From Micromonosporaceae bacterium (GTDB lineage Bacteria > Actinomycetota > Actinomycetes > Mycobacteriales > Micromonosporaceae), in NCBI GenBank assembly GCA_017354595.1, contig JAFMQQ010000001.1, positions 1 through 31,720 on the forward strand: a stretch of DNA of 31,720 nucleotides, in the 5' to 3' direction. Of the stretch, positions 1,497 to 31,720 are shown in pieces (within the stretch, counting starts at the first letter, position 1; every line of letters begins with the position of its first letter). A model generated the notes under the pieces. It saw only the letters and a program-made list of their open reading frames with translations, did no database searches and was not told the origin of the DNA. A program made the position numbers and the translations under genes.

Positions 1497-2234
1497 GTGC
1501 TGGCCGAAACCATGGCTCGTGCCGGACAGGCACTGATCGGGGACACCCCACCCAACGGAAAGCGCTACTGGGCGGCCCGCTTCTGGGACCGCGACTCGGC
1601 CGAACGGCACCCCGTGCTCGCCGGCGACTTCCTCAGCCAGAAGAACACCATCGCGCGCTACCTGCAGACCTACGCCGCCGGCGCGCACACCTCGGTCGAG
1701 TTCGCCTGCGGCACCGGCGAGTTCACCCGGCTCACCGCGCTGCACACGAACGTCGCTACCATGCGCACACTGGACATCTCCGCGCGGGCACTGGAGATCG
1801 CCCGCAACCGGGTCGACCATCCCGACCTGCAGTTGGTGCAGGGCGACTTCTGGGCCGACAACGGGCTGGAGCCTTCCGACCTGGTGGTCTGTGTCGACGC
1901 GATCCACCACCTGGGCGACATCCGCGAGGTCCTGACCCGGCTGCGGACCTTCGTCAAGCCCGGCGGTACCTTCATCGGCAACGTGTTCACTGTGGACAAC
2001 TTCCACGAGTTTGAGCGTCGCCGCTACGGTCGGCTGGAGCACACGTGGCGCACCGCGCTGTTCCTCGGTACGGCGATGGCGGTCAAGCTCTCCGCGGGCA
2101 AGCTCTACACCGGCTCGCACCGCACTCAGCTCAAGCCAGGCGCGTACACCGTCAACCTGCTCGGCGAGATCTTCGATGAGGTTCTCGAGGTCACCGTTGA
2201 CCCGTACTTCACCGCCTTCGCCTGCCGGGCCTGA
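1497..2234 (+). CDS. Class I SAM-dependent methyltransferase
   Basis: Motif I VEFACGTGEF, acidic LDIS, DLVVC..AIHH, KPGG; start reassigned to GTG 1497 (GGAG-AAGGG upstream), alternative ATG 1512. Confidence 0.85.
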   Translation: MLAETMARAGQALIGDTPPNGKRYWAARFWDRDSAERHPVLAGDFLSQKNTIARYLQTYAAGAHTSVEFACGTGEFTRLTALHTNVATMRTLDISARALEIARNRVDHPDLQLVQGDFWADNGLEPSDLVVCVDAIHHLGDIREVLTRLRTFVKPGGTFIGNVFTVDNFHEFERRRYGRLEHTWRTALFLGTAMAVKLSAGKLYTGSHRTQLKPGAYTVNLLGEIFDEVLEVTVDPYFTAFACRA

Positions 2235-2257
2235 CCGGCCGGCCGAGAGGGGTAGCT

Positions 2258-3319
2258 ATGAGGATTCTGGTGACCGGCGGCGCCGGTTTCATCGGCCGGC
2301 GCATCGTCGAAGAACTGGTCGCCGCCGGACACCAGGTTCGGGTGTTGGATGTGCTGTTGCCCGACACCCACCCGGTACCGCGGCCGCCGGCGTTCCCGGA
2401 CGGCGTCGAGTTCATCCGCGGCGATGTGCGGGACACCGCGACCGTGGTCGCCGCGCTGCGCGGCGTCGACCTGGTCAGCCACCAGGCCGCGGTGGTCGGA
2501 CGGGGTCGGGAGATCCTGGACGCCGCGCACCACGTCTCCTGCAACGACCTGGGTACGGCGGTGCTGCTGGCCGCGATGGCCGAGCGCGGGCCGAACCGGT
2601 TGCTGCTCGGCTCGACCGTGGCCCTCTACGGCGACAGCCGGTACGACTGCCGCGAACACGGCCGGGTCCGGCCCAACCGGCGTAGCCGCACCGACCTGGA
2701 GGCCGGCCGGTACGAACCCACCTGTGTCGAGTGTGGACAGCCGCTGGTCTCCAGCGCGGTGACCGAGGAGGACCACATCGACCCGCCCCGCAACATCTAC
2801 GCGGTGACCAAGCTGGCGCAGGAGTACCTGACCGCCACCTGGGCGCGGGAGACCGGCGGCTGCGCGGTGGCGCTGCGGTACCACAACGTCTACGGGCCCG
2901 ACATTCCCTACCAGAGCCCGTACTCCGGCGTCGTCGCGGTGTTCCGCAGCGCGGTGGCGCGTGGCGAGGCACCCGAGCTGTACGAGGACGGCGGCTCGCT
3001 GCGCGACTTCGTCCACGTCAAGGATGTGGCCGCCGCGCACCTGGCGGCGCTGTCCTGGGCCGAGCCTGGCTGGCGCGCGTTCAACGTGGCCAGCGGCGTA
3101 CCGCACTCCATCGGTGACGTGGCCCGGGCACTGGCCGCCGCGGCGGGCGGCCCGCCGCCGGTGGTGACCGGCGCATACCGGATCGGCGACGTGCGGCACA
3201 TCGTCGCGTCGCCGGCCCGGATCCAGGCCGAGCTCGGCTGGCGGCCGAGCATCGACTTCGAGACCGGGATGAAGGAGTTCGCGCTGGCACCGATGCGCGG
3301 CGGACCGGAGGGACGCTAA
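2258..3319 (+). CDS. NAD-dependent epimerase/dehydratase (extended SDR, probable NDP-sugar epimerase)
   Basis: TGGAGFIG, YAVTK, RYHNVYGP, RDFVHV motifs; RBS GAGAGGGG. Confidence 0.9.
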   Translation: MRILVTGGAGFIGRRIVEELVAAGHQVRVLDVLLPDTHPVPRPPAFPDGVEFIRGDVRDTATVVAALRGVDLVSHQAAVVGRGREILDAAHHVSCNDLGTAVLLAAMAERGPNRLLLGSTVALYGDSRYDCREHGRVRPNRRSRTDLEAGRYEPTCVECGQPLVSSAVTEEDHIDPPRNIYAVTKLAQEYLTATWARETGGCAVALRYHNVYGPDIPYQSPYSGVVAVFRSAVARGEAPELYEDGGSLRDFVHVKDVAAAHLAALSWAEPGWRAFNVASGVPHSIGDVARALAAAAGGPPPVVTGAYRIGDVRHIVASPARIQAELGWRPSIDFETGMKEFALAPMRGGPEGR

Positions 3320-4533
3320 TGCTGCGGGTAGCCATCGCCGGGGCCGGTATCGGCGGCCTGTGCCTGGCACAGGGCCTGCGCCGGGCAGGCATCGAGGCGA
3401 GCGTGTACGAGCGGGACCCGGCGGCGCTGGCCCGCGGGCAAGGGTACCGGCTGCGCCTGGACCACCAGGGCCACGACGCGCTGCGCACGTGCCTACCCCC
3501 GGACCTGTTCGCGCTGCACGAGGCGACCGCCAACGCGCCGTACATGTCCAGCGGCAGTGTCTACGACCACCAGCTGAACCTGCTCTACGCCCACCAGCGC
3601 CGCGACGCCCCGCTGGACCCGGCCACCGCGAGCCGCGGAGTCAACCGGCTCACCGTGCGCCAGATCCTGCTCACCGGCATTCCTGTCCACTTTGGACGGA
3701 CAGTGGTCGGCGTGCGCAGCGGGACGGACCGGGCCTGGCTGGACTTCGCCGACGGCAGCACCGTCTGCGCCGACCTGGTGATCGGTGCAGATGGCATCAA
3801 CTCGATGGTCCGCCGGAACCTGGCGCCCGATGCCGGGCTGGTCGACACCGGACTGCGCGCCATCTACGGGCAGTCCCCGCTCGTCGAGGAACTCGTCGAG
3901 CGCCTGCCCGGCCCGCTGTTCGGCGGATCCTCGCCGGTGCTCGGGCCGCACCGGCAGACCCTGGCGCTCGGCTCATACCAGCCGGTAGTACCGCACGCCG
4001 AGGCGGTGGCCCGCACCGCGCCCCACGCCCGGCTGGATTCCTTCCCGGACTACATGAAGTGGACTCTGGTGGCACCGGCCCACCAGTTCGCGCTGCGCGG
4101 CCCGGCGCTGTGGCGGGCCAGCGCGCGGCGGCTGCATGAGCAGGCCCGGCAGTGCACCGCAGACTGGCATCCCGCCCTGGCCATGCTGGTCGAGCGGGCC
4201 GAGATCCCGGTGACCTTCCCGCTTGCGATCCGGGCCAGCGCGCCGCCGGACTGGCCGTCCGGGCGGGTCACTCTGCTCGGTGACGCCGCGCACGCGACCA
4301 CCCCGGTCGGCGGTACCGGAGCTAACACCGCGCTGCGCGACGCCGCGCTGCTCACCCAGCGACTGCGCCGGGTCATCGAGGGGAGGCTGCACCTCTCCGA
4401 GGCGGTACGCGGATATGAGGAACAGATGCGTGACTACGGCAGCACCGCGGTACGCAATTCGTTGCGCGGCGCGCAGAAGATCTTCCGGGCCGACCCCGCC
4501 GAGTTCAGCTCGGCACTGGTCGGCGTCGGCTGA
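3319..4533 (+). CDS. FAD-dependent monooxygenase (aromatic hydroxylase family)
   Basis: GAGIGG FAD motif, GADG, LLGDAAH..TP..GTGANTALRDA; start overlaps the upstream stop. Confidence 0.9.
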   Translation: MLRVAIAGAGIGGLCLAQGLRRAGIEASVYERDPAALARGQGYRLRLDHQGHDALRTCLPPDLFALHEATANAPYMSSGSVYDHQLNLLYAHQRRDAPLDPATASRGVNRLTVRQILLTGIPVHFGRTVVGVRSGTDRAWLDFADGSTVCADLVIGADGINSMVRRNLAPDAGLVDTGLRAIYGQSPLVEELVERLPGPLFGGSSPVLGPHRQTLALGSYQPVVPHAEAVARTAPHARLDSFPDYMKWTLVAPAHQFALRGPALWRASARRLHEQARQCTADWHPALAMLVERAEIPVTFPLAIRASAPPDWPSGRVTLLGDAAHATTPVGGTGANTALRDAALLTQRLRRVIEGRLHLSEAVRGYEEQMRDYGSTAVRNSLRGAQKIFRADPAEFSSALVGVG

Positions 4534-5758
4534 CGCCGACCAGTGTCCAAAGCTGCTCAACCACGTCCGCCGGTGCCGGCAGGGCGAGCGCCTCGTCCCG
4601 CAGCCGGCGCGCCGCGGCGGCGTACCCCGGATCCGACAGCAACTGCAGCACCGCCGCGCGGATCCCCTGCGCGTCCGCCTCCGCGGCCCGCAGGTGGATG
4701 CCCGCGCCGGTTGCCGCCAGCTGGTTCGCAATGAAGATGGTGTCCTGCGACATCGGGATGGTCAGCTGCGGCACCCCGCAGACCACCGACGACATGGTGG
4801 TCCCGCTGCCGCTCTGGTGCACCACGGCAGCGCAGGTGGGCAGCAGCATCCGCAGCGGTACGGGTCCACAATGGACCACATTGGGCGGCAGCTCACCGAG
4901 CGTCTCCCGTTGGCTGGGCAGCGCGGCCACAACCACCTCCACGTCCAGCCCGGCGAGCGCGGCGAGCACCCGCGGAGCAAGATAGGTGTCGAGCAACCCT
5001 AGATTGTGGATGGTGGTTCCCCAGGTGACGCATACCCTGGGACGGCCACCGGTGGACAGCCGGCCGAGCCAGGTGGGTACCGTCATCGGCCCGTTGTAGG
5101 TGACGTACCGGATCGGGTGACGGCGGATCGCGTCGCGGACCTGCAGCCGCGGCGGGCACGGGTCGAGGGTGACCGTGCCGGTGATGTCCACATCGGAGAG
5201 TCCGAAGGGGGCGACCACCGGTCCCAGGATGCGCGCCGAGATGCCCTGCATCGGCGCGCAGAGGTCCGGCGCCCAGAGTTGGCGAACGGTCGGGATGCCC
5301 AGGATCGCGGCGACCACCGGCCCGACGAACCCGGTCGGCTCGAAGACCACCAGGTGCGGTCGCCAGTCCCGGGCGAAGCCCAGCACATCGTCGAGCATGT
5401 CCGCGGTGCCGTCCAGCACCACCCGCAGCATCTGCCTGCCCAACTGGTTATGCGCCAGGTCCCGGTTGCGCCGCCCGGGTGGCGGCGCAACCGGCGCGCC
5501 CCGCGATTCTGGGTGCTCGAAGGTGGCGGCGGCACGCTCCTCGGGCGAGAGCTGGGCGAATCGGCGGCGCAGCTGTTCGCTCACGTCCACCTCCGGGCCG
5601 GCCGGCAGCGCGGTCAGGCCGGAGTCGGTGATGGTGCGGGCGAAGGGCGGCGGGGCGGCGACCACCACCTGGTGCCCGGCCGCCTGCAGTGCCCAACCGA
5701 GCGGCACCAGCGGCTGGTAGTGCCCGCTCTGCGCCCAGGTGGTGAACAACACCCGCAT
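4505..5758 (-). CDS. Family 1 glycosyltransferase GT-B
   Basis: MRVLFTTWAQSGHYQPLVPLGWALQAAGH, WRPHLVVFEP, LDPCPP, VHQSGSGT..S....GVPQL. Confidence 0.93.
   Translation of the reverse strand: MRVLFTTWAQSGHYQPLVPLGWALQAAGHQVVVAAPPPFARTITDSGLTALPAGPEVDVSEQLRRRFAQLSPEERAAATFEHPESRGAPVAPPPGRRNRDLAHNQLGRQMLRVVLDGTADMLDDVLGFARDWRPHLVVFEPTGFVGPVVAAILGIPTVRQLWAPDLCAPMQGISARILGPVVAPFGLSDVDITGTVTLDPCPPRLQVRDAIRRHPIRYVTYNGPMTVPTWLGRLSTGGRPRVCVTWGTTIHNLGLLDTYLAPRVLAALAGLDVEVVVAALPSQRETLGELPPNVVHCGPVPLRMLLPTCAAVVHQSGSGTTMSSVVCGVPQLTIPMSQDTIFIANQLAATGAGIHLRAAEADAQGIRAAVLQLLSDPGYAAAARRLRDEALALPAPADVVEQLWTLVGVSRRRPVPS
4514..4545. terminator. Perfect 14-bp inverted repeat at convergent gene ends, possible bidirectional terminator
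   Basis: CACTGGTCGGCGTC-ggct-GACGCCGACCAGTG, spanning the overlapping 3' ends of the monooxygenase and GT-B. Confidence 0.55.
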
Positions 5759-6327: not shown

Positions 6328-6421
6328 CGGTGGCTCCCTTCAGTTGGATGCCCGATGGTTGCCCCGGCGGGTCCAGCGGTTCTTGAGCCGTGGTTGGGTG
6401 CGCCGGGGTGCACTGCTGGGC

Positions 6422-7399
6422 ATGACACCTACCGCGGTCGTACTCGGCGGGACCGGCTTCCTCGGCCGCCACGTCTGCGCGGCGCTGCGCCGACACGCCT
6501 ACCGGGTGGTGGCCGTCGGCCGCACAGCGCGAGTGGTGCCCGGGTGTCCGGTGTGGACGCTCGACGCGGCGGCCGACCCGGGCCGACTCGCGAACCTGCT
6601 CGCCGGGCAGGAGCCGAGCGTGGTCGTCAACGCCGCCGGCGCTGTGTGGGGCCGAGACGGCGAAGGCCGGGCGCTGGTCGACGGAAACGTCACCACGGTG
6701 GCGAACCTCATCGCGGCCGCCACCGTCCAGCGGCGACCACCACGCCTGGTGCACCTCGGCTCTGTCTACGAGTACGGCCAGCAGCCGCCCGGCGTGCGCA
6801 TCTACGAGCAGACCCCGGCGTGCCCGTGCGGCGGGTACCCGCAGAGCAAGCTGCGCGGCACCGAGCTGGTGCTCGCCGCGCCGCCCACACTGCGTCCGCT
6901 CGTCCTCCGCCTGTCCACTGTGGTCGGACCGGGGGCACCGGAGCAGAGCCTCTTCGGCGGCATCCTCAAGCAGCTGGCGGCGGCCGGGCCACCCGGTCCG
7001 GTACCGTTGCGGCTGCCGGCGCTGCGCGGCTGCCGTGACTTCATCGACGTGCGGGATGTCAGCGATGCCGTGGTCCGGGCCTGCCGCAGCACGGCGACCG
7101 GAGTACTCAACGTGGCCAGCGGCGTGCCCTACCCGGTCGCCGCCGCTGTCGACGCCCTCATCGAAACCACCGGCCTGCCCGTGCTGCGCCTCGCCGCACC
7201 CGCCGGGACCCGCGGCAGCCCCGTGCGCCGAGACGCCGGCATCGGCACCCAACTGATCAGCGTCGGCGCGGCACGCGCCCGGCTCGGCTGGCGCCCCCAT
7301 TACAGCCTGACACAGGCTCTCGAGCACCTCTGGCGGCACCAGCAGATCACCAGCCGCACCAGTGCGGTCGCGGTTACAGCTGAGGGGAGCCGACGATGA
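6422..7399 (+). CDS. NDP-hexose 4-ketoreductase-like extended SDR (UrdZ3/LanZ3-like)
   Basis: VLGGTGFLG, VNAAG, HLGSVYEYG, YPQSK, RDFIDVRDV; start moved to ATG 6422; coupled to the 3,4-dehydratase. Confidence 0.8.
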   Translation: MTPTAVVLGGTGFLGRHVCAALRRHAYRVVAVGRTARVVPGCPVWTLDAAADPGRLANLLAGQEPSVVVNAAGAVWGRDGEGRALVDGNVTTVANLIAAATVQRRPPRLVHLGSVYEYGQQPPGVRIYEQTPACPCGGYPQSKLRGTELVLAAPPTLRPLVLRLSTVVGPGAPEQSLFGGILKQLAAAGPPGPVPLRLPALRGCRDFIDVRDVSDAVVRACRSTATGVLNVASGVPYPVAAAVDALIETTGLPVLRLAAPAGTRGSPVRRDAGIGTQLISVGAARARLGWRPHYSLTQALEHLWRHQQITSRTSAVAVTAEGSRR

Positions 7400-8733: not shown

Positions 8734-9920
8734 TCACCTCGTGGGCGTGGCCCTCCCACTACCTACCCCTGGCGCCACTGGGCTGGGCACTGCGCGCCGC
8801 CGGCCATGAGGTACGGGTCGCCAGCCAGCCCCGGCTCACCCCCGTCATCCTGGACTCCGGCGCCGTCGCCGTCCACAGTGGACCCGATCTCGACCACGAC
8901 CAGGTGCGCGCCCAGAGCATGCGCGACCTGCCGCTGGTCGCGGTCCCGCACGCGCCGGCCGCCGGAGCCACCATGCGCGACTGGGCGGCCGACCCGCGGG
9001 ATATGGTGCGCCGTGTCTTCCGCGTCTTCGTCCGGTACGCCGAGACGATGGTCGACGAGTTGCTCGACTATGCCCAGGCGTGGCGGCCCGACCTGGTGGT
9101 ATACGAGCCCACAAGCTACGCCGGCCCGCTGGTCGCCGCCGCACTCGGCGTACCCGCCGTCCGGCACGTGCAGGGCGTGGACGTCACCTACCAGGCCGCC
9201 GAGCTGCTACCCGAACTGCTCGCCCCGGTGTGCCGCCGGCTCGGACTGTCCGATGTAGACCCGCTGGGCACGGTCACCGTCGACCCGTGCCCGCCGAGCA
9301 TCCAGATCCAGGCCGGCCTGAAGCGGATCCCGGTTCGCTACATCCCGTACAACGGACCGGCCGTACTACCCGAGTGGCTGTATGAGCCGGCCGGCAAGCC
9401 GCGGCTGGTGGTCACCTGGGGCACCTCGACGACCCGACTCACCGGCAGCGGCACCTTCCGGCCCCCGGAGATCATCTCGGCCACTCGCGGGCTGGACTGC
9501 GAGCTGGTAATCGCGCTGACCGGCGCGGACGCCGCCGAGCTCGGTGAGGTTCCGAACGGGGTCCGGGTGGTGGAGTCACTCGCGCTGCACCTGCTGCTGC
9601 CCGGCTGCGCGGCGGTCGTGCACCAGGGCGGCAACGGCACCATCCTTACCGGTGTCCACTGTGGAGTACCGCAGCTGCTCCTGCCCCAGCTGCCCGACCA
9701 GACGTTCCTCGCCGACCAGTTCGCCAACTCTGGCGCGGGGATCGTGGTGCGGCCCGACCAGGCTACCCCGGAGGGGCTGCGCGAAGCCCTCGGCGCCCTA
9801 CTCCGCGAGGCGGCGTACCGGCAGGCGGCGGCGCGGTTGCGGGATGAGGCGCTGGCCCAGCCGACACCCGCCCAGATCGTCCCGGTCCTGCAGGCGCTCG
9901 CTCAGCACCGCGCCAGTTGA
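8721..9920 (+). CDS. Family 1 glycosyltransferase GT-C
   Basis: MRVLITSWAWPSHYLPLAPLGWALRAAGHEVRVASQP, VDPCPP, VHQGGNGT; true start ATG 8721 (the ORF track fuses it to a shadow frame). Confidence 0.93.
   Translation: MRVLITSWAWPSHYLPLAPLGWALRAAGHEVRVASQPRLTPVILDSGAVAVHSGPDLDHDQVRAQSMRDLPLVAVPHAPAAGATMRDWAADPRDMVRRVFRVFVRYAETMVDELLDYAQAWRPDLVVYEPTSYAGPLVAAALGVPAVRHVQGVDVTYQAAELLPELLAPVCRRLGLSDVDPLGTVTVDPCPPSIQIQAGLKRIPVRYIPYNGPAVLPEWLYEPAGKPRLVVTWGTSTTRLTGSGTFRPPEIISATRGLDCELVIALTGADAAELGEVPNGVRVVESLALHLLLPGCAAVVHQGGNGTILTGVHCGVPQLLLPQLPDQTFLADQFANSGAGIVVRPDQATPEGLREALGALLREAAYRQAAARLRDEALAQPTPAQIVPVLQALAQHRAS
8871..8883. repeat. Iterated palindrome GTCCACWGTGGAC (representative perfect 13-mer; also perfect at 11265 and 11817)
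   Basis: The 11-bp core TCCACWGTGGA is exact at 8872, 9655, 11266, 11818, 13321, 14554, 26003, 26217 and 31285. Confidence 0.9.
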
Positions 9921-11182: not shown

Positions 11183-12329
11183 GCGCGGCACCTCCCGCAA
11201 TGGTGAGCAGTTCGTCGCGTACCTGGGCGGCCTGCGGCTGCCGGGCCATCTCCGAGCGCAGATCGTCCACTGTGGACGGCGGCGCGGAGAGCATCGTCAC
11301 GGCCTGGTCCCGGATCGCCGCAGCGGTGGCCTCGGCGGCGTAGACCATCCGGGCGGCACCGGCGGAGGTCAGCCGCTGCGCGTTGAAGATGTGGTCGGGG
11401 TTGCGCGGGACAAGCAGCTGCGGGGTACCGGAGACGAGTGCGGTCATCGCCATGCCGCCACCCCCGGAGTGCACCGCGAGGCAGCAGCTGGGCAGCAGCA
11501 GGTGCATGGCGAGTCGGGGCACCACGCGCACGTGCCCCGGCAGGTCATCGGTGACCGGGTTGACCACCACAATCTCGACATCCAGGCGGTCGAGTGCCTC
11601 GACCACCAGCGACTCGAAGGCCGTCCCGGTGCGGGCGAACCGGCCGGCGATCGTGCCACCCGTGACGCAGACCCGTGGGCGGCTCGGCGACTTGCGCAGC
11701 CAGCCGGGCAGCTGCGCGGGCCCGTTGTACGGCGCGTACCGGATGGGCAGCCGGCGCACCGGATGCGGCGCTTGCAGCGACTGCGGGCACGGGTCGACGG
11801 TAACCAGGCCCAAGGTGTCCACTGTGGACAGGCCGAGCCGGCTGGCGAGCGGCGCGAGGGCACCCGGTTCGTATTCGTGGGTCAGGTAGGTGAAGTCCAT
11901 CCCCCAGATGTGGCGCACCGCGGGCACCCCGAGGGCCGCGGCGGCCAGCGGTCCGGCGAAGGTGGTCGGCTCGAAGACCACCACGTCGGGACGGAAGGAC
12001 TCCCCGTACCGCAGCGTGTCGTCGAGCATGTCGCCGGCCAGCTCCACATAGAGGGAGACCGTGTCGGCGCCGAACTTCGCCAGCAGCTCACTGATCTCGA
12101 TCGGCCGGCCAAGCCGGTCCAGGTACTCGTGGAAGGGGCGGAGCACCGGCGCCACGTCCACGTCGGTGCCGACCGGTACCGCGGTCAGCCCGGCCTGCGT
12201 GATCGCCGGCGCCAGGCCCGGCTGGCTGGCCACCCGCACCTCGTCGCCGGCCGCCTGCATCGCCCAGGCGAGCTGGACCAGCGGATAGAGATGCGAGGGC
12301 CAGCCCCAGGTGGTGAACAGAACCCGCAC
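11175..12329 (-). CDS. Family 1 glycosyltransferase GT-E
   Basis: MRVLFTTWGWPSHLYPLVQLAWAMQAAGDEVRVASQP, VDPCP, VHSGGGG. Confidence 0.93.
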   Translation of the reverse strand: MRVLFTTWGWPSHLYPLVQLAWAMQAAGDEVRVASQPGLAPAITQAGLTAVPVGTDVDVAPVLRPFHEYLDRLGRPIEISELLAKFGADTVSLYVELAGDMLDDTLRYGESFRPDVVVFEPTTFAGPLAAAALGVPAVRHIWGMDFTYLTHEYEPGALAPLASRLGLSTVDTLGLVTVDPCPQSLQAPHPVRRLPIRYAPYNGPAQLPGWLRKSPSRPRVCVTGGTIAGRFARTGTAFESLVVEALDRLDVEIVVVNPVTDDLPGHVRVVPRLAMHLLLPSCCLAVHSGGGGMAMTALVSGTPQLLVPRNPDHIFNAQRLTSAGAARMVYAAEATAAAIRDQAVTMLSAPPSTVDDLRSEMARQPQAAQVRDELLTIAGGAAHG

Positions 12330-12332: not shown

Positions 12333-14783
12333 TCAGACCCGCCCCGGAGCCGGCCGTACCACGCCCGCCGAACCGTCCACAGTGACCAGTTGGCCGTCGC
12401 GCAGCGTGCCGGTACCGGCGCCGGTGGCGACCACCGCCGGTACCCCGTACTCCCGGGCGATGATCGCCGGGTGGGACAGCAGGCTACCGCGGTCGGTGAC
12501 CAGCGCACCGACACTGGGGAACAGCATCGCCCACTGCGCCGTGGTCTCCGGGCAGACCAACACGTCGCCGCGGCGCAGCTTGCCGAACTCCGCGACCCCG
12601 GCCACCACCCGCACCGGGCCGGTGTAGCGGCCGGGTGAGGCGGCCACTCCACGCAGCAGCACACCGTCCTGTGTGGATTCCGTCGCGCCCTGGCCGCCGG
12701 AGACCGCCATCGACCAGCGCCCGATCGCGACCACACGAAGCGCCGCCGGGGACAGGGTCACCTCGGGATCCGGCTGCGGCCCGCCCGGGTACTGCCCGTA
12801 GGTCGGTGGGCCGGGGTGGGCCAGTGCCCAGGCGTACTCCCCCTTCCGCCGGCGCACCAGCGCCGCGACCCCGCCGGCGGCAGGGCCACCGTCGACCGCG
12901 GCCAACGCCTCGTCCAGGGTGAGGAAGAATACGTCCGACGGATCGGCGAACCGGTCCAGCCGGGCGCCCAGCTCCAGGCAGGCGTAGCGCAGCAGGGCCC
13001 ACAGGCTGACGGCGTAGTAGACCTTCTCGTCGCGTACCGGCGCCGCCACACTGCTGTCGGCGACCGCCTTCTCGAACTGGGCGCGCTGCTCTGCCGGCCG
13101 GCCGGCGAGCGCCTGGCGTGCCTCGGCCAGCGCCGCGCTACGCCGCCCCTGGATCGCGGCGCGTTCGGCGGCGAAGTCGTACGGCGCATCCAGTTGCGCG
13201 GCGACCAACGCCAGCAGCGTCTCCGGATGCTCGGCGAGGGTCGGTTCGGTCAGCTCGAAGCCCACCGTCCGGTGCGCGTGCTCACGCACGTATGCATCGA
13301 ACGCCGCCGCGAACTCGGCGTCCACTGTGGATAGAGTGCTGGCCGGCCGGCCGCTGGTGAGGTGCGCGCGTACCGCCGGCCTGCCGGCGGCCAGCGCGGC
13401 CAGCTCGCCGATGCCCGTCGCCGCGCCCATGTGTACGCCGGCCAGGCCGCCACCCAGCCGCAGCACCTGCGGCGCCGACCAGCCGAGCAGGCTCCCACAG
13501 GTGACCCCGAGCTGGCCGAAGATCGCGATGGCTGCCCCGGCGAGCTGGAAGTAGACCCGGTGCAGGTCCCTGAAGGCGGTGAGCACCTCGCGGAGGTGTG
13601 CTACCAGCTGCCTGGTGGAAAGCTCTGCCCGCGGCACCTCTCGCAGCTGTTCGATTCGCGCGGCGAAGGCCGGCCGCCAATGCTCGTGCCACCGGTCCAC
13701 CAGGGAGCGCGGCTCGCCCTCGGCCAACCGCTGCGCGATCCGCTCGGCCCGGGTGGCCAGGCCACGCGTGGTGTCCTCGGGAAGTCCGACGTACGGCCAG
13801 CCGGCGATCTGCTGCACCTGCGGGGCGGCCACGGTGGTGAAGGCGAAGACCGAGGCGGCCGCGTCCCGGTAGACGTCGAGGAAGACCGCGGACTTCATCG
13901 CCGTCCACGGTCTGTCGCTGTTGTGGTCGCGCGCCCAGAACCCCGGCGGCACAACAACCTCCATCGGGATCTGCGGCGTGCTGGTTACCGGCCGGGCCTG
14001 CACCAGGCACAGCGTGCCGCTGGCGATGGCCCACTCGATGTCCTGCGGGACGCCGAAGTACCCGGCGACCCGGTCGGTGAGCGCGGCCACGTCGGCAACC
14101 TGCTCCGTGGTGAGCACATCCGGCGAGTCGTTGTCGGCGCGCCGGGCGGTGCCGTCCCGGTAGGTCCACTCCTGCGCGCTGGTCTGGCCGGACATCAGCC
14201 GGTCGCCCAGCCCGGGTACCGCGCTGACGACCGTCTCCGCGTCGCCGGTGACCGGGTTCACGCTGAACGCCACCCCGGCCGCGTCCGCCGGTACCATCAC
14301 CTGCACCAGTACGGCCAGCCCACCGGCTGAGCCGGCGTAGCGGGCCAGCCGCTCGGAGAAGCTGGAGACCCAGCAGGTACGCACCGCCGCCAGCAGGGCC
14401 GGCAGGCCTACCACGTCGAGCACCGACTCGTACTGGCCGGCGAAGGAGCGGTCGGCCAGATCCTCGGCGGTGCCTGAAGAGCGCACCGCGACGGGGCCCC
14501 CGCCGAGCCCGGCCAGCGCGGTCTCCAGCTGGGCGACCAGCTCACCCGGAATTTCCACTGTGGACAGAACGGTGGCGACAGTGGACCGGTCGACCGGGCC
14601 GGTCCCGGGCTGGCCCAGCAAGCCGGCCTTCTCCAGCACACCGGCGAGCGCTTCGGTGGTGAGCACAAAGCCGTCCGGCACCGGGAAATCCGCGGCGCGC
14701 AGCTCGCCAAGTACCGCGGCCTTGCGGCCGGCCAATGGGGCGTCGGACAACCGTACCCGCGACAACGGCAGCACCTGGCTCAT
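12333..14783 (-). CDS. PEP-synthase/PPDK-like three-domain dikinase (rifampin phosphotransferase-type architecture)
   Basis: N-terminal ATP-grasp (VPDGFVLT, VAVRSSGTAED, SFAGQYES, GVAFSVNP, PQDIEWA, QARPVT), ~400-aa central domain, C-terminal His-swivel (GVAASPG..GPVRV, LLSHPAIIAREYGVPAVV). Confidence 0.88.
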   Translation of the reverse strand: MSQVLPLSRVRLSDAPLAGRKAAVLGELRAADFPVPDGFVLTTEALAGVLEKAGLLGQPGTGPVDRSTVATVLSTVEIPGELVAQLETALAGLGGGPVAVRSSGTAEDLADRSFAGQYESVLDVVGLPALLAAVRTCWVSSFSERLARYAGSAGGLAVLVQVMVPADAAGVAFSVNPVTGDAETVVSAVPGLGDRLMSGQTSAQEWTYRDGTARRADNDSPDVLTTEQVADVAALTDRVAGYFGVPQDIEWAIASGTLCLVQARPVTSTPQIPMEVVVPPGFWARDHNSDRPWTAMKSAVFLDVYRDAAASVFAFTTVAAPQVQQIAGWPYVGLPEDTTRGLATRAERIAQRLAEGEPRSLVDRWHEHWRPAFAARIEQLREVPRAELSTRQLVAHLREVLTAFRDLHRVYFQLAGAAIAIFGQLGVTCGSLLGWSAPQVLRLGGGLAGVHMGAATGIGELAALAAGRPAVRAHLTSGRPASTLSTVDAEFAAAFDAYVREHAHRTVGFELTEPTLAEHPETLLALVAAQLDAPYDFAAERAAIQGRRSAALAEARQALAGRPAEQRAQFEKAVADSSVAAPVRDEKVYYAVSLWALLRYACLELGARLDRFADPSDVFFLTLDEALAAVDGGPAAGGVAALVRRRKGEYAWALAHPGPPTYGQYPGGPQPDPEVTLSPAALRVVAIGRWSMAVSGGQGATESTQDGVLLRGVAASPGRYTGPVRVVAGVAEFGKLRRGDVLVCPETTAQWAMLFPSVGALVTDRGSLLSHPAIIAREYGVPAVVATGAGTGTLRDGQLVTVDGSAGVVRPAPGRV

Positions 14784-16147: not shown

Positions 16148-16160
16148 CGAGACCCTCCAC

Positions 16161-17343
<1,183 letters not shown>

Positions 17344-19850: not shown

Positions 19851-20359
19851 CCCGCGCCTCCTTCGGCAGGTGCCGCGACGGCCGGCGGGGGCAGGTGCGG
19901 GTTGGGCAACGGCTCGGTGTCGACGTGGCCGAGGGCCGGCTGCGGCGCGAGCGGCGCCAGGTGGAACACCGCGCGGGCGGGTACCGTGCCGTTGTTCTCC
20001 ACCCGGTGCCGGATCCCGATCGGCACCATCAATCCCTCACCGGCGACCAGGTGGATCGGCTGTCCGTCCACTTTGGCGTCCATCTCGCCGGAGACCACGT
20101 AGAGGAACTCTTCCGAGTACGGGTGGTAGTGCTCGGCGACGAACTCGCTGGGGGCCAGGTCGAGGGTCCCCAGGAACCCCGAGGTGGAGCCGACGGTACG
20201 CGGGCCGAGCACCACCCGGATCTCGCCGCCGCGGCGGCGGTTCGGCGGTATGTCATCCCGGCCGATCTTCACGACTCCATTGTGGACACCGCCATTGTGG
20301 ATCGCCTCGTCGTGTCCATCATGGACTGGTCCGTTGCGAGTGGACAGTTGCGCGCTCAT
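19847..20359 (-). CDS. Cupin-fold polyketide cyclase (TcmJ/WhiE-ORFII type)
   Basis: [36 protein letters not shown]; ATG 20359 with GAGGAG RBS. Confidence 0.92.
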
Positions 20360-20709: not shown

Positions 20710-21785
20710 CAGGTCTCCTTGGAGGATTGCGCTGCAGCCAGGCTGCGCCCTGGGGGTAGGAGCCGGCTCGAGGACCGGGCCAGGGCGGCCGCCGCGGCCC
20801 GCACCGTGGCGAGCTGGTCCTCGACCGATGGCGCGAGCAGGGTCAGGCCGAGCGTGGTCACGCCCGCCGCCCGGTACTCCGCGAGCCGCGGAGCGATCCG
20901 GCTCACCGGGCCGACCAGCGACGTAGCGTCGATCAGCTCGAACGGCACCGCGGCGGCTGCTGCGGCCCGATCCCCGGCCCGCAGGTGCGCCCGGATCTGA
21001 CTGGCCGCCTCGCCGAAGCCCATCCGTACCGCGAGCCGGTGGTAGATGCTGCGCTCGGCGCTGCCCAGCCCGATGAAGTTGGCGAAGTAGTGCCGCAGCG
21101 GCTGTGCCGCGGCGAGCAGATCGTCGCCGACCCCGATGGGTACCGACAGCAGCACCTCGAAGCCGGCGAGCCGGTCGCCTGGCTCCCCGGCACCCGCCGC
21201 ACGCCGCCCGGCGCGCAGCCGATCCAGCGCCTCGGCGACCTGCTGCGGTGAGCTGAACACGCCGACCCAGCCGTCACCGATTTCGCCAGCCAGCTCCTGG
21301 CTGCGCGGGCCAACCCCGGCCAGATAGATCGGCAGCCGGGCCGGTGTCGGGCCGGCGAGCTGGGCCGCGTCCGCCTCGCCCAGCCGGTAGTGCCTGCCGT
21401 GGTAGCGGACCGGCGCACCGGATAGCGCCAACCGCACCACCTCCACGTATTCACGGGTGCGGCGCAACGGCGCGTCGAAGGGTACGCCGTACCAGCCGGC
21501 CGACACGTCCGGGTTGGACACGCCCAACCCGAGCCGGAACCGGCCAGCTGACATACTGTCCAATGTGGAGGCTGTAAGTGCGGTCAACACCGGGGTCCGC
21601 GCCGGGATCTGCATGACCCCGGAGCCGAGCCCGATCCGGCTGGTCCGCGCCGCCACCGCGCCGAGCACGCTGACCGCGTCGCACCGGTACCCCTCTGGCA
21701 CCAGGGCCAGCCCGTAGCCGAGCTGCTCGGCAGCGACCGCCACTGGCACCGCGCTGTGCTGGTTGAGAAACACACCTAGCCGCAT
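20709..21785 (-). CDS. LLM-class (luciferase-like) flavin/F420-dependent oxidoreductase
   Basis: AEQLGY..V.EGY..DA, RIGLGSGVMQIPARTP, GRFRLGLGVS, PIYLAGVGP....LAGEIGDGW. Confidence 0.88.
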   Translation of the reverse strand: MRLGVFLNQHSAVPVAVAAEQLGYGLALVPEGYRCDAVSVLGAVAARTSRIGLGSGVMQIPARTPVLTALTASTLDSMSAGRFRLGLGVSNPDVSAGWYGVPFDAPLRRTREYVEVVRLALSGAPVRYHGRHYRLGEADAAQLAGPTPARLPIYLAGVGPRSQELAGEIGDGWVGVFSSPQQVAEALDRLRAGRRAAGAGEPGDRLAGFEVLLSVPIGVGDDLLAAAQPLRHYFANFIGLGSAERSIYHRLAVRMGFGEAASQIRAHLRAGDRAAAAAAVPFELIDATSLVGPVSRIAPRLAEYRAAGVTTLGLTLLAPSVEDQLATVRAAAAALARSSSRLLPPGRSLAAAQSSKET

Positions 21786-25205: not shown

Positions 25206-26749
25206 CCCACACCTCCAATGTCTACAGTGGACGATGCATCGCCGGCCACCTCGTCACCGAGCCGGGCCACGTGCCACAGCCAGCGTTCTGCCAACCGGGC
25301 GGCGCGCTGCGGGCTCACCGCGTCCGTGCGGTACCAGATGTGGCTGTCCCCGCCGCTGACCGGCAGCAGCGCCAGGCACAGCTCGAGGACCGAGGTACGC
25401 TGCGGCATCCAGATGCGGGTCACCGACAGCCCCGGCAGCACAAGTCCCGGGTGCTCGGTGCCCTGCAGCAGGAAACCCACCTGGCAGAACGGCGCGCGAC
25501 CAGTCGAGGTCGGCTGCAACTCCCAGTACAACCGCTCCAGCGGCATGAACTGGTCGGTCAGTACCCGCCCGAGCAGAGCAGTCGCGTGCTGCAGGCAGTC
25601 GCCCGCGCCGACCGAGGACGGGAAGCGCAGGATCGCCGAGGAGGCGAAGGCGCCGACCACGTTCTCGGCCGCTGGCTGGGTGCGCCCGGCCAGCGCCAAC
25701 CCGACCGCAAAGTCGTCTGCGCCGGTCTCTTCGCGCAACGCAAGGATCCAGGCAGCCAGATAGACCGCGCTCGGCATGGTGGCGTAGCAGCGGCAGGTCC
25801 GCCTCAGCCGCTCGGCGTTGACGGCGGACAGCCGCACCGGCTGGTCGTCGACCGGGCCGCTGGGCGACGAGGGGAGCATCTCGCACGGCATATCCGGCAC
25901 GCCCCGCAGGTGCTCCAGCCAGAACTGCTCGTCGGCCGGCGCACCCGTCACCTCGGCGGCCACCTCCTGGAATCCCGGCACCGCCGGCAGGTCCGGCTCC
26001 TGTCCACTGTGGAATGATCGGTACGCGATGGCGAGATCGCGACAGATCAACCCGTCCGACCAGCCGTCATATGCGGTCTGGTGCAGCCCGAGAGCCAGGC
26101 AGTGGTCGGCCGGGCCGAGCCGGAACAACCGCGACCGCAACGGCCGGTCCCGCCCCATATCGAACGGCTCCCAAAGCAAGCCCTCGATCGCCGCGAGCAG
26201 TCCAGCCCCGGCTACTTCCACAGTGGACAGTTCCGGCTCGGAGCCGGGCGGCAGGACGAGCGGCGTGACGCGCCAGCCGTCGTCAGTTGTCAGAATGGTG
26301 CGCAGCGCCGAGTGCCGGTCCACCAGATAGCTCAGCGCGCGAGCCAGCGCCGGCAGGTCCAGCGGACCGCGGATGCGAAACAGCATCGGGTTTATCGCGT
26401 CCCCGCTACCTGGGCGCTGCTGCTCCAGGTACCACATGCGGTGCTGGCTGACCGGCAGCCCACCTACCAGACGGGTAACGCCACCACGAGGTGTGCCCAC
26501 CAGGGGCGCGCCAGCGGCACACTCGGATCCCGAGCGGCCGGCGACGATCTCGGCGATCAGCCGCGGGGTACGCCCGGTGACCACATCCGGCGGGGTGACC
26601 AGGCAACCGTGCAGCTGCCGGAGGCGGTTCACCAACTGGACCGTGGTGACCGAATCGGCACCTGTGTCAAACAGGTCGGTATCGGGGCCGACCGGCCCAG
26701 GAAGCAGGTCGACCGCGGCACGGGTGATCGTGGTGACCAACGTTTCCAT
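25202..26749 (-). CDS. Stand-alone carrier protein (T)-condensation (C) didomain
   Basis: DLFDTGADSV carrier Ser motif; LPVSQHRMW, GPLD..AL..AL..LV.RH.ALRT, LHQTAYDGWS; no adenylation domain. Confidence 0.85.
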   Translation of the reverse strand: METLVTTITRAAVDLLPGPVGPDTDLFDTGADSVTTVQLVNRLRQLHGCLVTPPDVVTGRTPRLIAEIVAGRSGSECAAGAPLVGTPRGGVTRLVGGLPVSQHRMWYLEQQRPGSGDAINPMLFRIRGPLDLPALARALSYLVDRHSALRTILTTDDGWRVTPLVLPPGSEPELSTVEVAGAGLLAAIEGLLWEPFDMGRDRPLRSRLFRLGPADHCLALGLHQTAYDGWSDGLICRDLAIAYRSFHSGQEPDLPAVPGFQEVAAEVTGAPADEQFWLEHLRGVPDMPCEMLPSSPSGPVDDQPVRLSAVNAERLRRTCRCYATMPSAVYLAAWILALREETGADDFAVGLALAGRTQPAAENVVGAFASSAILRFPSSVGAGDCLQHATALLGRVLTDQFMPLERLYWELQPTSTGRAPFCQVGFLLQGTEHPGLVLPGLSVTRIWMPQRTSVLELCLALLPVSGGDSHIWYRTDAVSPQRAARLAERWLWHVARLGDEVAGDASSTVDIGGVG

Positions 26750-28317: not shown

Positions 28318-29372
28318 CCGGCCCGCTGCGCTTCGGCGTCCTGGGCTGCGCGGACATCGCCGTCCGGCGCACCCTCCCGGCGATCTGCTCCCACCCGGAC
28401 ACCACGCTGACCTGGGTGGCGAGCCGGGACCCGGCGAAGGCGGCCCGGGTCGCCGACCGCTTCGGCTGCCGCGCGACCGACTACGCCGGGCTGCTCGAGC
28501 GCGACGACGTGGACGCGGTATACCTGCCCCTGCCACCCTCGCTGCACCTGGAGTGGGGCGCCCAGGTGCTGGCCTGCGGCAAGCACCTGCTGGTGGAGAA
28601 GCCACTGGCGCCGGATGCCGCGCAGGCCGCCGAGCTGGCCCAGCTGGCCGCCGAGTCGGGCCTGGTGCTGCGGGACAACATGACCTTCCTGCACCACCCG
28701 GTACACGCCAGGGTGCGCGAGTTGGTCGCCGCCGGCAGGCTGGGCGAGGTACGCGCGCTACACGCCGCCTTCTGCTTCCCGCCACTCTCCAATGTGGACA
28801 TACGGTACTCACGAGCCCTGGCCGGCGGTGCCCTGCTCGACGCGGGGGTGTACCCGCTGCGCTGCGCCCAGCTCATGCTCGGTGAACAGCTACGGGTGGC
28901 CGGCGCTGTGCTGCGCGAGGACCCGGATCGCGGCGTGGACCTGTCCGGGCAGGCGCTACTGGTCTCCGCCGGGGGCGTGCCGGCGAGCCTGGCCTTCGGC
29001 TTCGAGCACAGCTACGGCTCCTGGTACACCCTCTGGGGAAGCACCGCGCGGCTGCACCTGGACCGGGCGTTCACCCCGCCGGCGTACCGGCAGCCGGTGC
29101 TGCGCATCGAAGAGCAGGACCGGGTGGAGGAGCTGACCCTCGCCCCGTACCACCAGTTCGAGGGCTCGGTCGGCGCGTTCGCGGCGGCGGCTCGCGACGG
29201 TGGCCGGGACGAGAGCGTCTGGCGCGCCGCCGCGCTGGGCACCCTGCGCCTCGCCGACCAGATCCGCGACCTCGCGGTGCGCGTTCCGGCACAGCCCCGC
29301 CGCGGCCAGCCGATCCAGCCGGCCGGCAGTCGGGCGGCGACCGGCATCAGCGCTGGGCATGACGGCGGGTGA
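28314..29372 (+). CDS. NDP-hexose 3-ketoreductase (Gfo/Idh/MocA family)
   Basis: FGVLGCADIA.RR.LPA, DAVYLPLP, GKHLLVEKP, GGALLDAGVYP; ATGA overlap with the 2,3-dehydratase. Confidence 0.92.
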   Translation: MTGPLRFGVLGCADIAVRRTLPAICSHPDTTLTWVASRDPAKAARVADRFGCRATDYAGLLERDDVDAVYLPLPPSLHLEWGAQVLACGKHLLVEKPLAPDAAQAAELAQLAAESGLVLRDNMTFLHHPVHARVRELVAAGRLGEVRALHAAFCFPPLSNVDIRYSRALAGGALLDAGVYPLRCAQLMLGEQLRVAGAVLREDPDRGVDLSGQALLVSAGGVPASLAFGFEHSYGSWYTLWGSTARLHLDRAFTPPAYRQPVLRIEEQDRVEELTLAPYHQFEGSVGAFAAAARDGGRDESVWRAAALGTLRLADQIRDLAVRVPAQPRRGQPIQPAGSRAATGISAGHDGG

Positions 29373-31245
29373 GCCGCCGCCCGGCGCCGGCAGCGGGTGT
29401 GCTCGCGGCCGGGTCGGCGTTGGGCGGTGTGGGCATGCCCAGCACGTAGGTGCGTACCAGGCCGGGCAGGAGGAAGGTACGCTCGTCGCGGTCTCCGTGC
29501 CGGATGAAGGCGGTCTGCGCCAGCTGGTCCAACAATGGCTCGACCGCCGAGGTGGGCAGTCCGGTCAGCCGGGCGGCCTGGGTAGCGGTGAAGGACCCCT
29601 GCTCGGCGCGGGTCAGACCCTGCAGCAGCCGTCGGGCGGCCGGCTCCAGCCTGCGGTAGCTCGGCGCCAGGCGTGCACCCAGATCCAGCTCGTCGACGTG
29701 GAGCAGGGCCAGCCGGGTACGCGGGTCGGCCATCCGGGCCGCCATCCGGCGTACCGGGTACAGCGGATTGGCCCGCAGCCGTGCACCGACGGCGCGGATG
29801 CCCAGCGGGGAACGGGCACACATCCGCACAACCGCCGCGGCCGCCTCCGGTTCGGCCGCCACCCGTTGCCGCCCCGCGCAGCTGGCCAGCAGCTGCAGGC
29901 AGTCCGCCTCGTCCAGCTCCGCCAGTCCGACCGGATACACACCGGCCAGCCCGGCCAGCACCGGCCGGCTGGTGACCAGTACCGCGCACCGGGTACCGCC
30001 CGGCAGCAGCGGCCTGACCTGAGCCGCGGTCGCCGCATCATCCAACACCACCAGCACCCGACGCTCCGCCGTCCAACTGCGAAACAGCTGGCTACGCTCG
30101 CCGAGTGTCTGCGGCAGCTGCCAGTCGGCCAGGCCGGCGGCGCGCAGGAAGCCGCCCAGCACCGCGTGCGGGTCGGCCGGCTGCTCACTCGAGCCGGACA
30201 GCTCGGCGTAGAACTGCCCATCGACATAGCCGGACCGCACCCGGTGCCCGACCCGGACCGCCAGCGTGGTCTTACCCACCCCGACCACACCCGAGATCGC
30301 CACCAGCCGAGTCCCACCACCACCGTCACCGTCAGCGTCGCCGGTCACCATCTCCTCCAGCCTGGCCACCAGCTGAACCCGGCCAACAAAATCACCGATA
30401 TCCAGCGGCAGCTGGGCCGGGCGCACCAGACCACCCAGGTACTCCAACCCACCAGCCTGCTCAAAGCCGTGGTCTGCCCCCGGCGGCGGCTGGCTGGGCT
30501 GCGAGTCGACCGCCAGCAGCGCCCCGTACATGCCGCGCAGCCTGGGCGACGGGTCGATGCCAAGCTCCTCCCCGAGCGTGACACGCAACGCCTGGTACGC
30601 CTCCAACGCCTCCGGACGCCGCCCCGACCGCTCCAAGGCCAGCATCAGGCTCGCCGAAAATCCCTCATGGAACGGATGCTGCGCGACCAGTGTCTTCAGC
30701 TCCCCGATCACCTCACGGTGCCGACCGAGCCTCAGGTCCGCCTCGACGCGCAACTCGATCGCCTGCAACCGGCGCTCGGCGAGCTGGCTGATGTGCACAC
30801 CCAGCACCGGTCCGGCGTCCACATCAGACAGTGGGTTCGGCGTGCACATCCGCAGCGCCTCGCCGAGCAGCCGCGCTGCCCGGTCCGGCGCGCCGGCCAA
30901 CGCCGCCCGGCCCTGCTCGACCAGCCGGTCGAAGACCGCCAGGTCCAGGTCGTCCGGGCCAAGCTGGATCAGGTACCCCAGCGGCTTGGTCACCAGCGTG
31001 TCCCGGCCGCCGCCCGGCTCCTCGCCCAACAGCCGGCGCAGCTGGTAGATGTAGGTCTGCAAAGTGGCCAACGCGCTGACCGGCGGGGCCTCGCCCCACA
31101 GCTCCTCCATCAGCGTGTCGCGGGTTACCACGTGGCCTTGCCGCAACGCCATCAGGGCCACCAGGTTGCGCAGCTTCGGCGCGCTGGGGGTAACCAGCTT
31201 GCCGTTGACCGCCATCTCCAGCGGCCCGAGCACCGATACCTTCAT
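29347..31245 (-). CDS. SARP/AfsR-like regulator (OmpR-type HTH + BTAD + NB-ARC, no C-terminal TPR array)
   Basis: VLGPLE, L..ELWGE.PP.SA..TLQTYIYQLR, P..E.....LMLAL.RSGR..EAL..Y, P-loop GVVGVGKTT, LVVLDDA. Confidence 0.93.
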   Translation of the reverse strand: MKVSVLGPLEMAVNGKLVTPSAPKLRNLVALMALRQGHVVTRDTLMEELWGEAPPVSALATLQTYIYQLRRLLGEEPGGGRDTLVTKPLGYLIQLGPDDLDLAVFDRLVEQGRAALAGAPDRAARLLGEALRMCTPNPLSDVDAGPVLGVHISQLAERRLQAIELRVEADLRLGRHREVIGELKTLVAQHPFHEGFSASLMLALERSGRRPEALEAYQALRVTLGEELGIDPSPRLRGMYGALLAVDSQPSQPPPGADHGFEQAGGLEYLGGLVRPAQLPLDIGDFVGRVQLVARLEEMVTGDADGDGGGGTRLVAISGVVGVGKTTLAVRVGHRVRSGYVDGQFYAELSGSSEQPADPHAVLGGFLRAAGLADWQLPQTLGERSQLFRSWTAERRVLVVLDDAATAAQVRPLLPGGTRCAVLVTSRPVLAGLAGVYPVGLAELDEADCLQLLASCAGRQRVAAEPEAAAAVVRMCARSPLGIRAVGARLRANPLYPVRRMAARMADPRTRLALLHVDELDLGARLAPSYRRLEPAARRLLQGLTRAEQGSFTATQAARLTGLPTSAVEPLLDQLAQTAFIRHGDRDERTFLLPGLVRTYVLGMPTPPNADPAASTPAAGAGRRLTRRHAQR

Positions 31246-31262
31246 GGCTTTCCCCTTGACGG

Positions 31263-31720
31263 TCAGGTCACCGGGACCGCATAGTCCACAGTGGATGGAG
31301 TGGTACCGTCTGCCGCACCGGCGACCGCCCGCCGCACCAGCTGGCAGATCTGCGCGATCTGCCCGGCGCCGACCGACGTACCGGTGGGAAGCGTGATGGT
31401 GCGGGCGGCCAGCGCCTCGGTGTTGGGCAGCCGGATCCCATCCCGGTAGGGCGCCATCCGGTGGCAGCCGGGATAGAAGTACCGCCGTGCCCGGACGTTC
31501 TCGGCATGCAGCAGCGCGACCAGCGTGTCCCGGTCGATCCCGGTCACCGTCTCGTCCACCTCGATGACCACGTACTGGAAGTTGTTGCGCTCCCGCTCAT
31601 CGAACTCGATCAATCGGATCCCCGGTATGCCAGCCAGCGACCCGCGGTACGCCTGGAAGTTGGCCGCGTTGTGCATGCGGAAATCCTCCAGGCTGTCCAG
31701 CGACGTCAGGCCCATCGCCG
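31263..31720 (-). CDS. DegT/DnrJ/EryC1/StrS aminotransferase, DesI/VioA-like sugar 4-aminotransferase (C-terminal part only)
   Basis: GLTSLD, N.QYVV.E.D...G..RD.L...L.AENV.ARRYF.PGCH.M.PY, LPTGT.V. Confidence 0.85.
   Translation of the reverse strand, partial: AMGLTSLDSLEDFRMHNAANFQAYRGSLAGIPGIRLIEFDERERNNFQYVVIEVDETVTGIDRDTLVALLHAENVRARRYFYPGCHRMAPYRDGIRLPNTEALAARTITLPTGTSVGAGQIAQICQLVRRAVAGAADGTTPSTVDYAVPVT

Follow-up and report, generated by a model that had tools for sequence, protein, structure and literature searches.

In the present study, a stretch of 31,720 nucleotides from a Micromonosporaceae bacterium (31.7 kb; hereafter the window, meaning the whole stretch that was analysed) was studied for an interrupted palindrome, TCCACWGTGGA, in which W is A or T. 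The window carries a type II polyketide synthase (PKS) and deoxysugar cluster, and its motif-bearing genes include several EryCIII-like glycosyltransferases, a PPDK_N/PEP-utiliser (dikinase-like) protein, a luciferase-like monooxygenase, a GFO/IDH/MocA oxidoreductase, a cupin and a sugar epimerase. A previous reading of the letters alone (the sequence-only reading) had listed nine exact copies of this 11-mer, and all nine are present (Table 1). The near-copies that it had given were also recovered (nine of nine with one mismatch, six of six with two), and we found five further two-mismatch copies starting at 2727, 5187, 12667, 20067 and 20291. Its estimate of fewer than 0.01 exact copies per window under a mononucleotide model was arithmetically correct, and dinucleotide-preserving shuffles gave 0.00. 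The spread over unrelated gene families and both strands was borne out by the open reading frame (ORF) and domain context. The copies lie in unrelated genes, and the one at 31285 marks the junction of two of them, beside a SARP regulator gene.

The draft genome that holds the window (G000; 4.68 Mb in 1,076 contigs, 70% completeness, 70.9% GC) comes from a termitarium metagenome, and the window is its longest contig. G000 has 541 exact sites, whereas a third-order Markov model predicts 1.2 (442x), and the top-scoring 8-mers of the whole genome are sub-words of the motif, so that a short palindrome is grossly over-represented genome-wide, as are the highly iterated palindromes (HIP) of cyanobacteria. 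Site counts per 4-kb chunk are Poisson-like, with an index of dispersion of 1.06. Neighbour distances agree with random placement, and neither regular or quasi-periodic spacing of the HIP type nor short-range clustering was found in G000, where short contigs limit the test. The window contains 9 exact sites against 3.7 expected from the G000 density, and 18 against 11.8 for the wider class defined below, which is only the upper tail of the distribution. The word is therefore not specific to the cluster, as had been raised before; the antibiotic cluster is an ordinary, slightly dense piece of this genome. Site density is similar in genes and spacers, 75% of the sites are within called genes, and their position along genes is uniform, without positional bias in G000. 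Since only 37 of 528 sites have flanks resembling those of another site, the word is not a dispersed repeat, and an element of the REP or MITE type was ruled out by the unique flanks of 93% of the sites together with their location in called genes. No long-range skew is anchored on the sites in G000, and the only skew, within about 30 nt, is part of the logo described below. Among the genes downstream of 147 intergenic sites no family recurs, and therefore the sites do not define a regulon.

Inside genes, the word is written with disfavoured codons. As had been claimed, these codons are rare: ACA and ACT make up 5.1% and 3.8% of the threonine codons, GGA 6.8% of the glycine codons and AGT 5.1% of the serine codons. 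Two reading frames had been described for the window, and across G000 all three are used, with shares of 67% (TCC-ACW-GTG-GAn), 21% (CCA-CWG-TGG) and 12% (nTC-CAC-WGT-GGA). The codon-preserving shuffle that had been suggested as a check gave a clear answer, since within-gene synonymous shuffling left 6.9 +/- 2.2 sites in the called coding sequences, in which 359 are observed. The peptide STV[D/E] occurs 286 times where 30 are expected (9x), while permuted control peptides occur 21-32 times. Because STV[D/E] is over-represented in this way and 237 of its 286 instances are encoded by the exact word, it is the DNA word that drives the protein sequence; the signal lies at the DNA level, as previously supposed, and not in a conserved peptide. 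The presence of sites within unrelated genes, regardless of protein family and with disfavoured codons, is shared with HIP-type words. The preferred frames, the distorted peptides and the strong core within extended flanks are shared with the DNA uptake sequences (USS/DUS).

The exact word is the visible part of a larger class. On both strands of G000, TCC-N5-GGA was observed 6,334 times against 2,320 expected, and spacers of 3, 4, 6 and 7 nucleotides show no such excess. Most of this excess falls in the class TCCACWNNGGA (one intact half and the outer triplet of the other half), which comprises 1,744 sites and recurs on average every 2.7 kb. For the logo, 1,200 non-exact sites were oriented by their intact half, and even after orienting the flanks remained symmetric, with G at position 0 in 72% and C at position 12 in 70%. 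Further outward, T or C is preferred at -1, A or G at 13, A at -3 (41%) and T at 15 (35%), so that the full logo is a 19-bp dyad, A-n-Y-G-TCCAC-W-GTGGA-C-R-n-T. These preferences are equal in intergenic and coding sites, and hence the flank logo is not a codon effect. Degenerate cores have the stronger flanks (71% against 54% G/C, p=2e-22), which is the opposite of contamination by chance matches, since these would dilute the flank signal. Such compensation between core and flanks fits what would be predicted from a binding-energy threshold.

The origin of the sites was followed in squalene-hopene cyclase orthologues aligned from ten genomes. Here the sites arise from near-cognates by point substitutions of all kinds, both synonymous and non-synonymous, for example GGC to AGT or AAT, GAC to GTG, TAC to TAT and GCC to TCC. 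An insertion footprint was ruled out, as the orthologues differ by substitutions, with lengths unchanged at the sites. Of the four cyclase sites, two are common to all three available genus members, at 76-78% protein identity. Retention was then measured in about 40-50 kb of orthologous alignment for each of three same-genus relatives (G001-G003). Of 20 unique sites, twelve recur in one or more of the relatives and eight are species-specific. Counted as site-locus pairs, 52% are kept, against 18.7% of the 11-mers within 72 nt (2.8x; flank identity 76%), so that over these 20 unique sites conservation between species exceeds the background, as for HIP-type words. In 11 of the 21 kept pairs the sequence has changed and is still within the class, and in one pair the intact half has switched sides, which argues for a function that would be maintained at the position. 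In the same aligned regions, 6-10 sites per comparison are private to G000, while 1-3 are private to the relative. The site density of 0.116/kb in G000, against 0.047-0.068/kb in the relatives, matches this difference, and the word seems to be still accumulating in the G000 lineage.

The distribution of the word is that of a clade-level trait, limited to clades within a single order. Three same-genus genomes have 351-548 exact sites, and other genera of the family have between 1 and 233. Among 12 further families of the order, five have 20-58 sites; in the others the count, 0-4, is comparable to that of the reversed-word control. The remainder of the class was sampled with 150 genomes, 144 of them from other orders, and there the 13-mer, that is, the word with its flanking G and C, has at most 2 copies, against 149 in G000. 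Every Amycolatopsis searched carries the word, as do Rugosimonospora and Dactylosporangium, and all 25 species of the A. acidicola genus have 95-355 sites. The 11-mer counts are 355 in Amycolatopsis acidicola, 278 in Amycolatopsis sp. GM8, 131 in A. thermalba, 184 in Rugosimonospora acidiphila JCM 18304 and 116 in Dactylosporangium sp. CA-092794; the 13-mer counts are 154 in A. saalfeldensis, 181 in A. jejuensis and 18 in Saccharopolyspora hattusasensis. Pseudonocardia sp. TRM90224 and Actinoplanes sp. TBRC 11911 have no sites. Three relatives (G025, G026 and G029) have only about 40-60 sites each, mostly perfect; in G025, an unpublished genome, 45 of the 58 sites are full 13-mers. On a complete Dactylosporangium chromosome the first 50 sites are spread over 0.38-5.86 Mb.

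A dense patch of sites in Dactylosporangium sp. CA-092794 was considered separately. At 5.76-5.92 Mb there are four giant ORFs of 8,732-11,631 aa, a 117-kb modular megasynthase, and these contain 10 exact sites, each of which falls on the same FHSTVD position of a repeated PKS module. The patch is one site copied with the repeated modules and not a transferred island, and since the 10 sites share one module position, module duplication can inflate local motif counts.

Table 1. Exact, half-degenerate and one-mismatch copies of TCCACWGTGGA in the window and their gene context
Copy	Position	Context
Exact, TCCACAGTGGA	8872..8882	inside EryCIII-like glycosyltransferase (+, about 8784-9920)
Exact, TCCACTGTGGA	9655..9665	same EryCIII-like glycosyltransferase as the 8872 site (+, about 8784-9920)
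Exact	11266..11276	glycosyltransferase ORF overlap: 3' end of 11175-12329(-), upstream of the start of 9902-11200(-)
Exact	11818..11828	S-T-V-D frame, glycosyltransferase 11175-12329(-)
Exact	13321..13331	S-T-V-D frame, PPDK_N/PEP-utiliser protein 12333-14783(-)
Exact	14554..14564	S-T-V-E frame, PPDK_N/PEP-utiliser protein 12333-14783(-)
Exact	26003..26013	(F)-H-S-G frame, ORF 25202-26761(-)
Exact	26217..26227	S-T-V-E frame, ORF 25202-26761(-)
Exact	31285..31295	junction: 40 nt upstream of the ATG of SARP/BTAD regulator 29347-31245(-); in the last 22 nt of ORF 31263-31715(-)
Half-degenerate, TCCACTTTGGA	3686..3696	FAD-binding monooxygenase 3319-4533(+)
Half-degenerate, TCCACAATGGA	4865..4875	glycosyltransferase 4505-5758(-)
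Half-degenerate, TCCACATCGGA	5187..5197	S-D-V-D, glycosyltransferase 4505-5758(-)
Half-degenerate, TCCGGTGTGGA	6547..6557	NDP-sugar epimerase/dehydratase 6221-7399(+)
Half-degenerate, TCCTGTGTGGA	12667..12677	dikinase-like gene
Half-degenerate, TCCACTTAGGA	16156..16166	ORF 15416-16228(-)
TCCATTGTGGA, then GCCATTGTGGA 15 bp on	20276..20301	N-terminal extension of cupin 19847-20437(-)
Half-degenerate, TCCAATGTGGA	21559..21569	luciferase-like monooxygenase 20709-21785(-)
Half-degenerate, TCCAATGTGGA	28788..28798	GFO/IDH/MocA oxidoreductase 27783-29372(+)
One-mismatch, TTCACTGTGGA	1986..1996	mismatch in outer position; outside the TCCACWNNGGA class
One-mismatch, TCCACTGTGGT	6914..6924	
One-mismatch, TCCACTGTGAA	17318..17328	near the 5' end of ORF 16618-17331(-)
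One-mismatch, TCTACAGTGGA	25221..25231	

Some local observations belong to these copies. The TCCATTGTGGA/GCCATTGTGGA pair in the cupin gene has the look of a tandem duplication of 15 bp that includes the site, and in the same N-terminal extension (20276-20349) it is followed by two further motif-like words, GTCCATCATGGAC and GAGTGGAC. Two glycosyltransferase paralogues have a site at the homologous position, which reads GLSDVD in the degenerate copy at 5187 and GLSTVD in the exact copy at 11818. When positions 7001-27000 were compared with G001-G003 and with a further genome (G006), the PKS/glycosylation cluster had no orthologue in the three same-genus genomes, only paralogous pieces of about 68% identity, and because of this the cluster is accessory within the genus. 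Elsewhere in G000, two contigs, C201 (10,885 bp) and C213 (10,661 bp), have no wider-class site where about 4 each are expected, and they may be recently acquired or mis-binned DNA. Apart from the motif, G000 has about 37,500 copies of GTAC, roughly 3x as many as a mononucleotide model predicts. Of the valine codons, 11.4% are GTA, a share that is unusual for a genome of 71% GC, and CCGGTACCGG occurs 534 times (1.9x over the third-order Markov model). A second and weaker bias towards a palindrome could explain this excess, as could a codon-pair effect.

From its random chromosome-wide spread, its origin by point substitution and its retention above the surrounding sequence, we conclude that selection for occupancy or a persistent drive preserves the word, and that neither a mutational quirk nor a repeat element nor a protein motif does so. 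We propose that TCCACWGTGGA is the core of a 19-bp dyad site for a putative lineage-specific homodimeric DNA-binding protein, and that it would form a genome-wide landmark of the HIP1 or uptake-sequence kind; we hold this reading with slightly better than even confidence. According to the logo, each monomer would read a 9-bp half-site, and the centres of the two half-sites would lie about 10 bp apart, one helical turn, as in helix-turn-helix dimers. Direct readout would apply to the outer (G)TCC/GGA(C) and indirect readout to the flexible, A/T-centred CACWGTG, in which one inner dinucleotide could therefore vary. Such a site could act as a landmark of the cell's own DNA for a DNA transaction, for example nucleoid organisation or DNA transfer and recombination. 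The sequence-only reading had suggested a dimeric chromosome-associated protein; the dimeric binder is still the best reading, in view of the dyad logo and the core/flank compensation, whereas the positional system of the matS, Noc or parS type that went with it is not supported, since the sites number in the thousands and are dispersed without being restricted to a region. The behaviour of the word does agree with a HIP1-like iterated palindrome, as was also suggested. Its novelty stood as well, in that full-text searches for the word and its variants gave no bacterial description.

A molecular drive of the kind that acts on uptake sequences is an unlikely alternative, though one to be taken seriously. 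Here a DNA-import, conjugative-transfer or recombination machine would prefer word-bearing DNA, and alleles with the word would spread through transfer followed by recombination, without a benefit per site. The anatomy of the sites is in line with this, with a strong core in weaker extended flanks, enriched one-off variants, preferred frames and distorted peptides (compare PMC2817400), and so are the fast turnover of the sites (8 of 20 being species-specific) and their random placement. The core/flank compensation and the retention in place fit selection too. The uptake channel ComEC is present in the motif-rich genomes searched, but it is equally present in motif-poor ones, and being universal in the sample it is uninformative. 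We know of no report of sequence-biased natural transformation in these actinomycetes, and USS and DUS are not palindromes. HIP1 itself is now reported to be linked to transformation and to the type IV secretion system (bioRxiv 10.1101/2024.09.10.611283; PMC13756078), which would favour a drive. This explanation overlaps with the homodimer reading in its reader, because a sequence-specific receptor is still needed. Selection and a transfer or recombination drive would rely on the same reader; what sets them apart is the reason for the accumulation of sites, and the present data do not separate the two.

An orphan DNA methyltransferase that recognises the word, with methylation-linked short-patch repair converting near-cognates as proposed for HIP1 (Elhai 2015), appears very unlikely. 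The HIP-like abundance and the W centre, as in Dcm-type sites, speak for it, and each cyanobacterial HIP has its cognate methyltransferase (PMC4390886). In the actinomycete drafts, none of the four Pfam families searched follows the word. PF00145 (C5 methyltransferases) was not found in the four genus genomes (G000-G003) or in G006, PF02086 (Dam-type) was found in no motif-rich genome, and PF02384 was not found in the genus or in G012, G021, G024, G025 and G026. PF01555 is patchy and is present also in motif-poor genomes, and four genomes that are 89-98% complete (G001, G012, G021 and the unpublished G025) match none of the four families. Thus, within four Pfam families and draft genomes, a cognate methyltransferase does not accompany the abundant word. 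The earlier idea of a modification target is not supported, as none of these four main DNA-methyltransferase families is common to the motif-rich genomes. The site-creating substitutions are of all types and not only T-to-C. To our knowledge, a fully specified target of 11-19 bp is too long for the known methyltransferases.

A relation to DnaA, in which the palindromes would titrate or position this protein, is most improbable. Between the half-site yGTCCACw and the actinobacterial DnaA box TTGTCCACA, 7-8 of 9 positions agree, and TGTCCACA occurs 556 times against 66 expected. The replication origin (oriC) regions of A. acidicola, Rugosimonospora and Dactylosporangium, and that of one non-carrier, nevertheless contain clusters of single TTGTCCACA boxes with no palindrome. 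The same boxes are used by motif-poor relatives, so that a function as DnaA box, which the half-site had suggested, was not confirmed. Furthermore, position -2 prefers C and not T, degenerate sites keep TCC/GGA and lose the CAC of the box, and DnaA is universal whereas the motif is clade-specific. It is just as doubtful that the word is a Chi-like self marker attenuating a helicase-nuclease or another defence nuclease, although it is genome-wide, dense and lineage-specific. Among 31 relatives, RecC (PF04257) was found only in five motif-poor genomes (0-5 sites) from five families and in none of the 16 motif-rich ones, so the word is not a RecBCD Chi; the anti-correlation is weak, about p=0.02 when relatedness is ignored. 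Chi sites are asymmetric and are read as single strands, whereas the word is palindromic. A scan of viral contigs with a 15-mer gave, among the matches listed, only single chance-like hits in mid-GC contigs. Finally, the excess could be an artefact that stems from protein motifs, from codon usage or from copying as a dispersed repeat or duplicated module; locally this does occur, in the Dactylosporangium PKS modules and the two glycosyltransferase paralogues of the window, but as a general explanation it is refuted by the unique flanks, by the synonymous shuffles, by the use of three frames plus intergenic DNA and by control peptides at expectation.

Returning to a homodimeric protein as the reader, several points weigh against it. 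No reader protein was found among the candidates tested. EbfC binds an odd palindrome with a W centre, and a YbaB/EbfC paralogue was considered for this reason, but its copy number does not track the motif. The absence of a methyltransferase was established for four Pfam families in draft genomes, and the retention sample is small (20 unique sites), with pairs that are not independent. A conserved ancestral operator was not found in motif-poor relatives, where 15 sites from five genomes share no context, and the proposed geometry of reading is derived from the logo. The spacing is random rather than even and gives no hint of an architectural role. In addition, a benefit per site is hard to picture for about 1,700 sites, which favours drive.

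Hyper-abundant short words such as HIP1, USS/DUS and Chi are rare, and each has either revealed a genome-wide DNA transaction or stays a long-standing puzzle. The present word is an independent and very strong case, with 11-19 bp, about 440x over expectation and hundreds of proteins rewritten. Its hosts are culturable high-GC actinomycetes, among them many Amycolatopsis species, Rugosimonospora acidiphila and Dactylosporangium. Because it comes without the methyltransferase link that dominates thinking on HIP1, it is a clean system for asking what maintains such words. In binning, and in the recognition of transferred DNA, the word is also a strong marker of lineage, and it biases codon and peptide statistics in gene clusters. 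More speculatively, and with a rather low expectation on our part, it might be the signal that a DNA-transfer or self-recognition system of mycelial actinomycetes recognises, in which case it would spread by drive and label the DNA of the cell itself. If so, it would have no precedent outside cyanobacteria and competent Gram-negative bacteria and would be the actinobacterial equivalent of uptake sequences or Chi, and it could be used at once to improve DNA delivery into Amycolatopsis, the producer genus of vancomycin and rifamycin.

Among the known systems, Chi is an asymmetric, orientation-biased word read by RecBCD or AddAB, whereas the present word is a palindrome and no RecC was found in the motif-rich genomes searched. 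The DnaA box shares GTCCAC(A) with the half-site, but it is a 9-mer (TTGTCCACA) clustered at oriC; the palindrome is absent from the oriC regions and from relatives with the same boxes, and the flanks and tolerated positions differ. The sites of MatP (matS), Noc (NBS), SlmA (SBS) and ParB (parS) are likewise palindromes of 13-16 bp, presumably bound by a dimer, and the small sets of mostly perfect sites in G025, G026 and G029 are reminiscent of them. Those systems have tens of regionally confined or excluded sites, whereas G000 has about 1,700 dispersed ones at a density 10-100x higher. HIP1 (GCGATCGC), the highly iterated palindrome of cyanobacteria (PMC4390886, PMC5861425), is similar in being a short perfect palindrome, hundreds of times over expectation, found genome-wide and inside genes against codon preference, conserved above neutral expectation and a clade-level trait. 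The present word is unrelated to it in sequence, longer (11-19 bp) and odd-length with a W centre, and its hosts are high-GC actinomycetes; its carriers share no cognate methyltransferase family among the four searched in drafts, and its spacing is Poisson-like whereas that of HIP1 is quasi-periodic (Xu et al. 2018). The uptake sequences of Pasteurellaceae and Neisseriaceae (PMC2817400, PMC3458573) differ in that the present word is palindromic, its hosts have no known sequence-biased uptake and the uptake channel gene is present in actinomycetes with or without the motif. Their likeness to it lies in the strong core within weaker extended flanks, the enriched one-off variants, the preferred frames and over-represented peptides, and the accumulation by point substitution.

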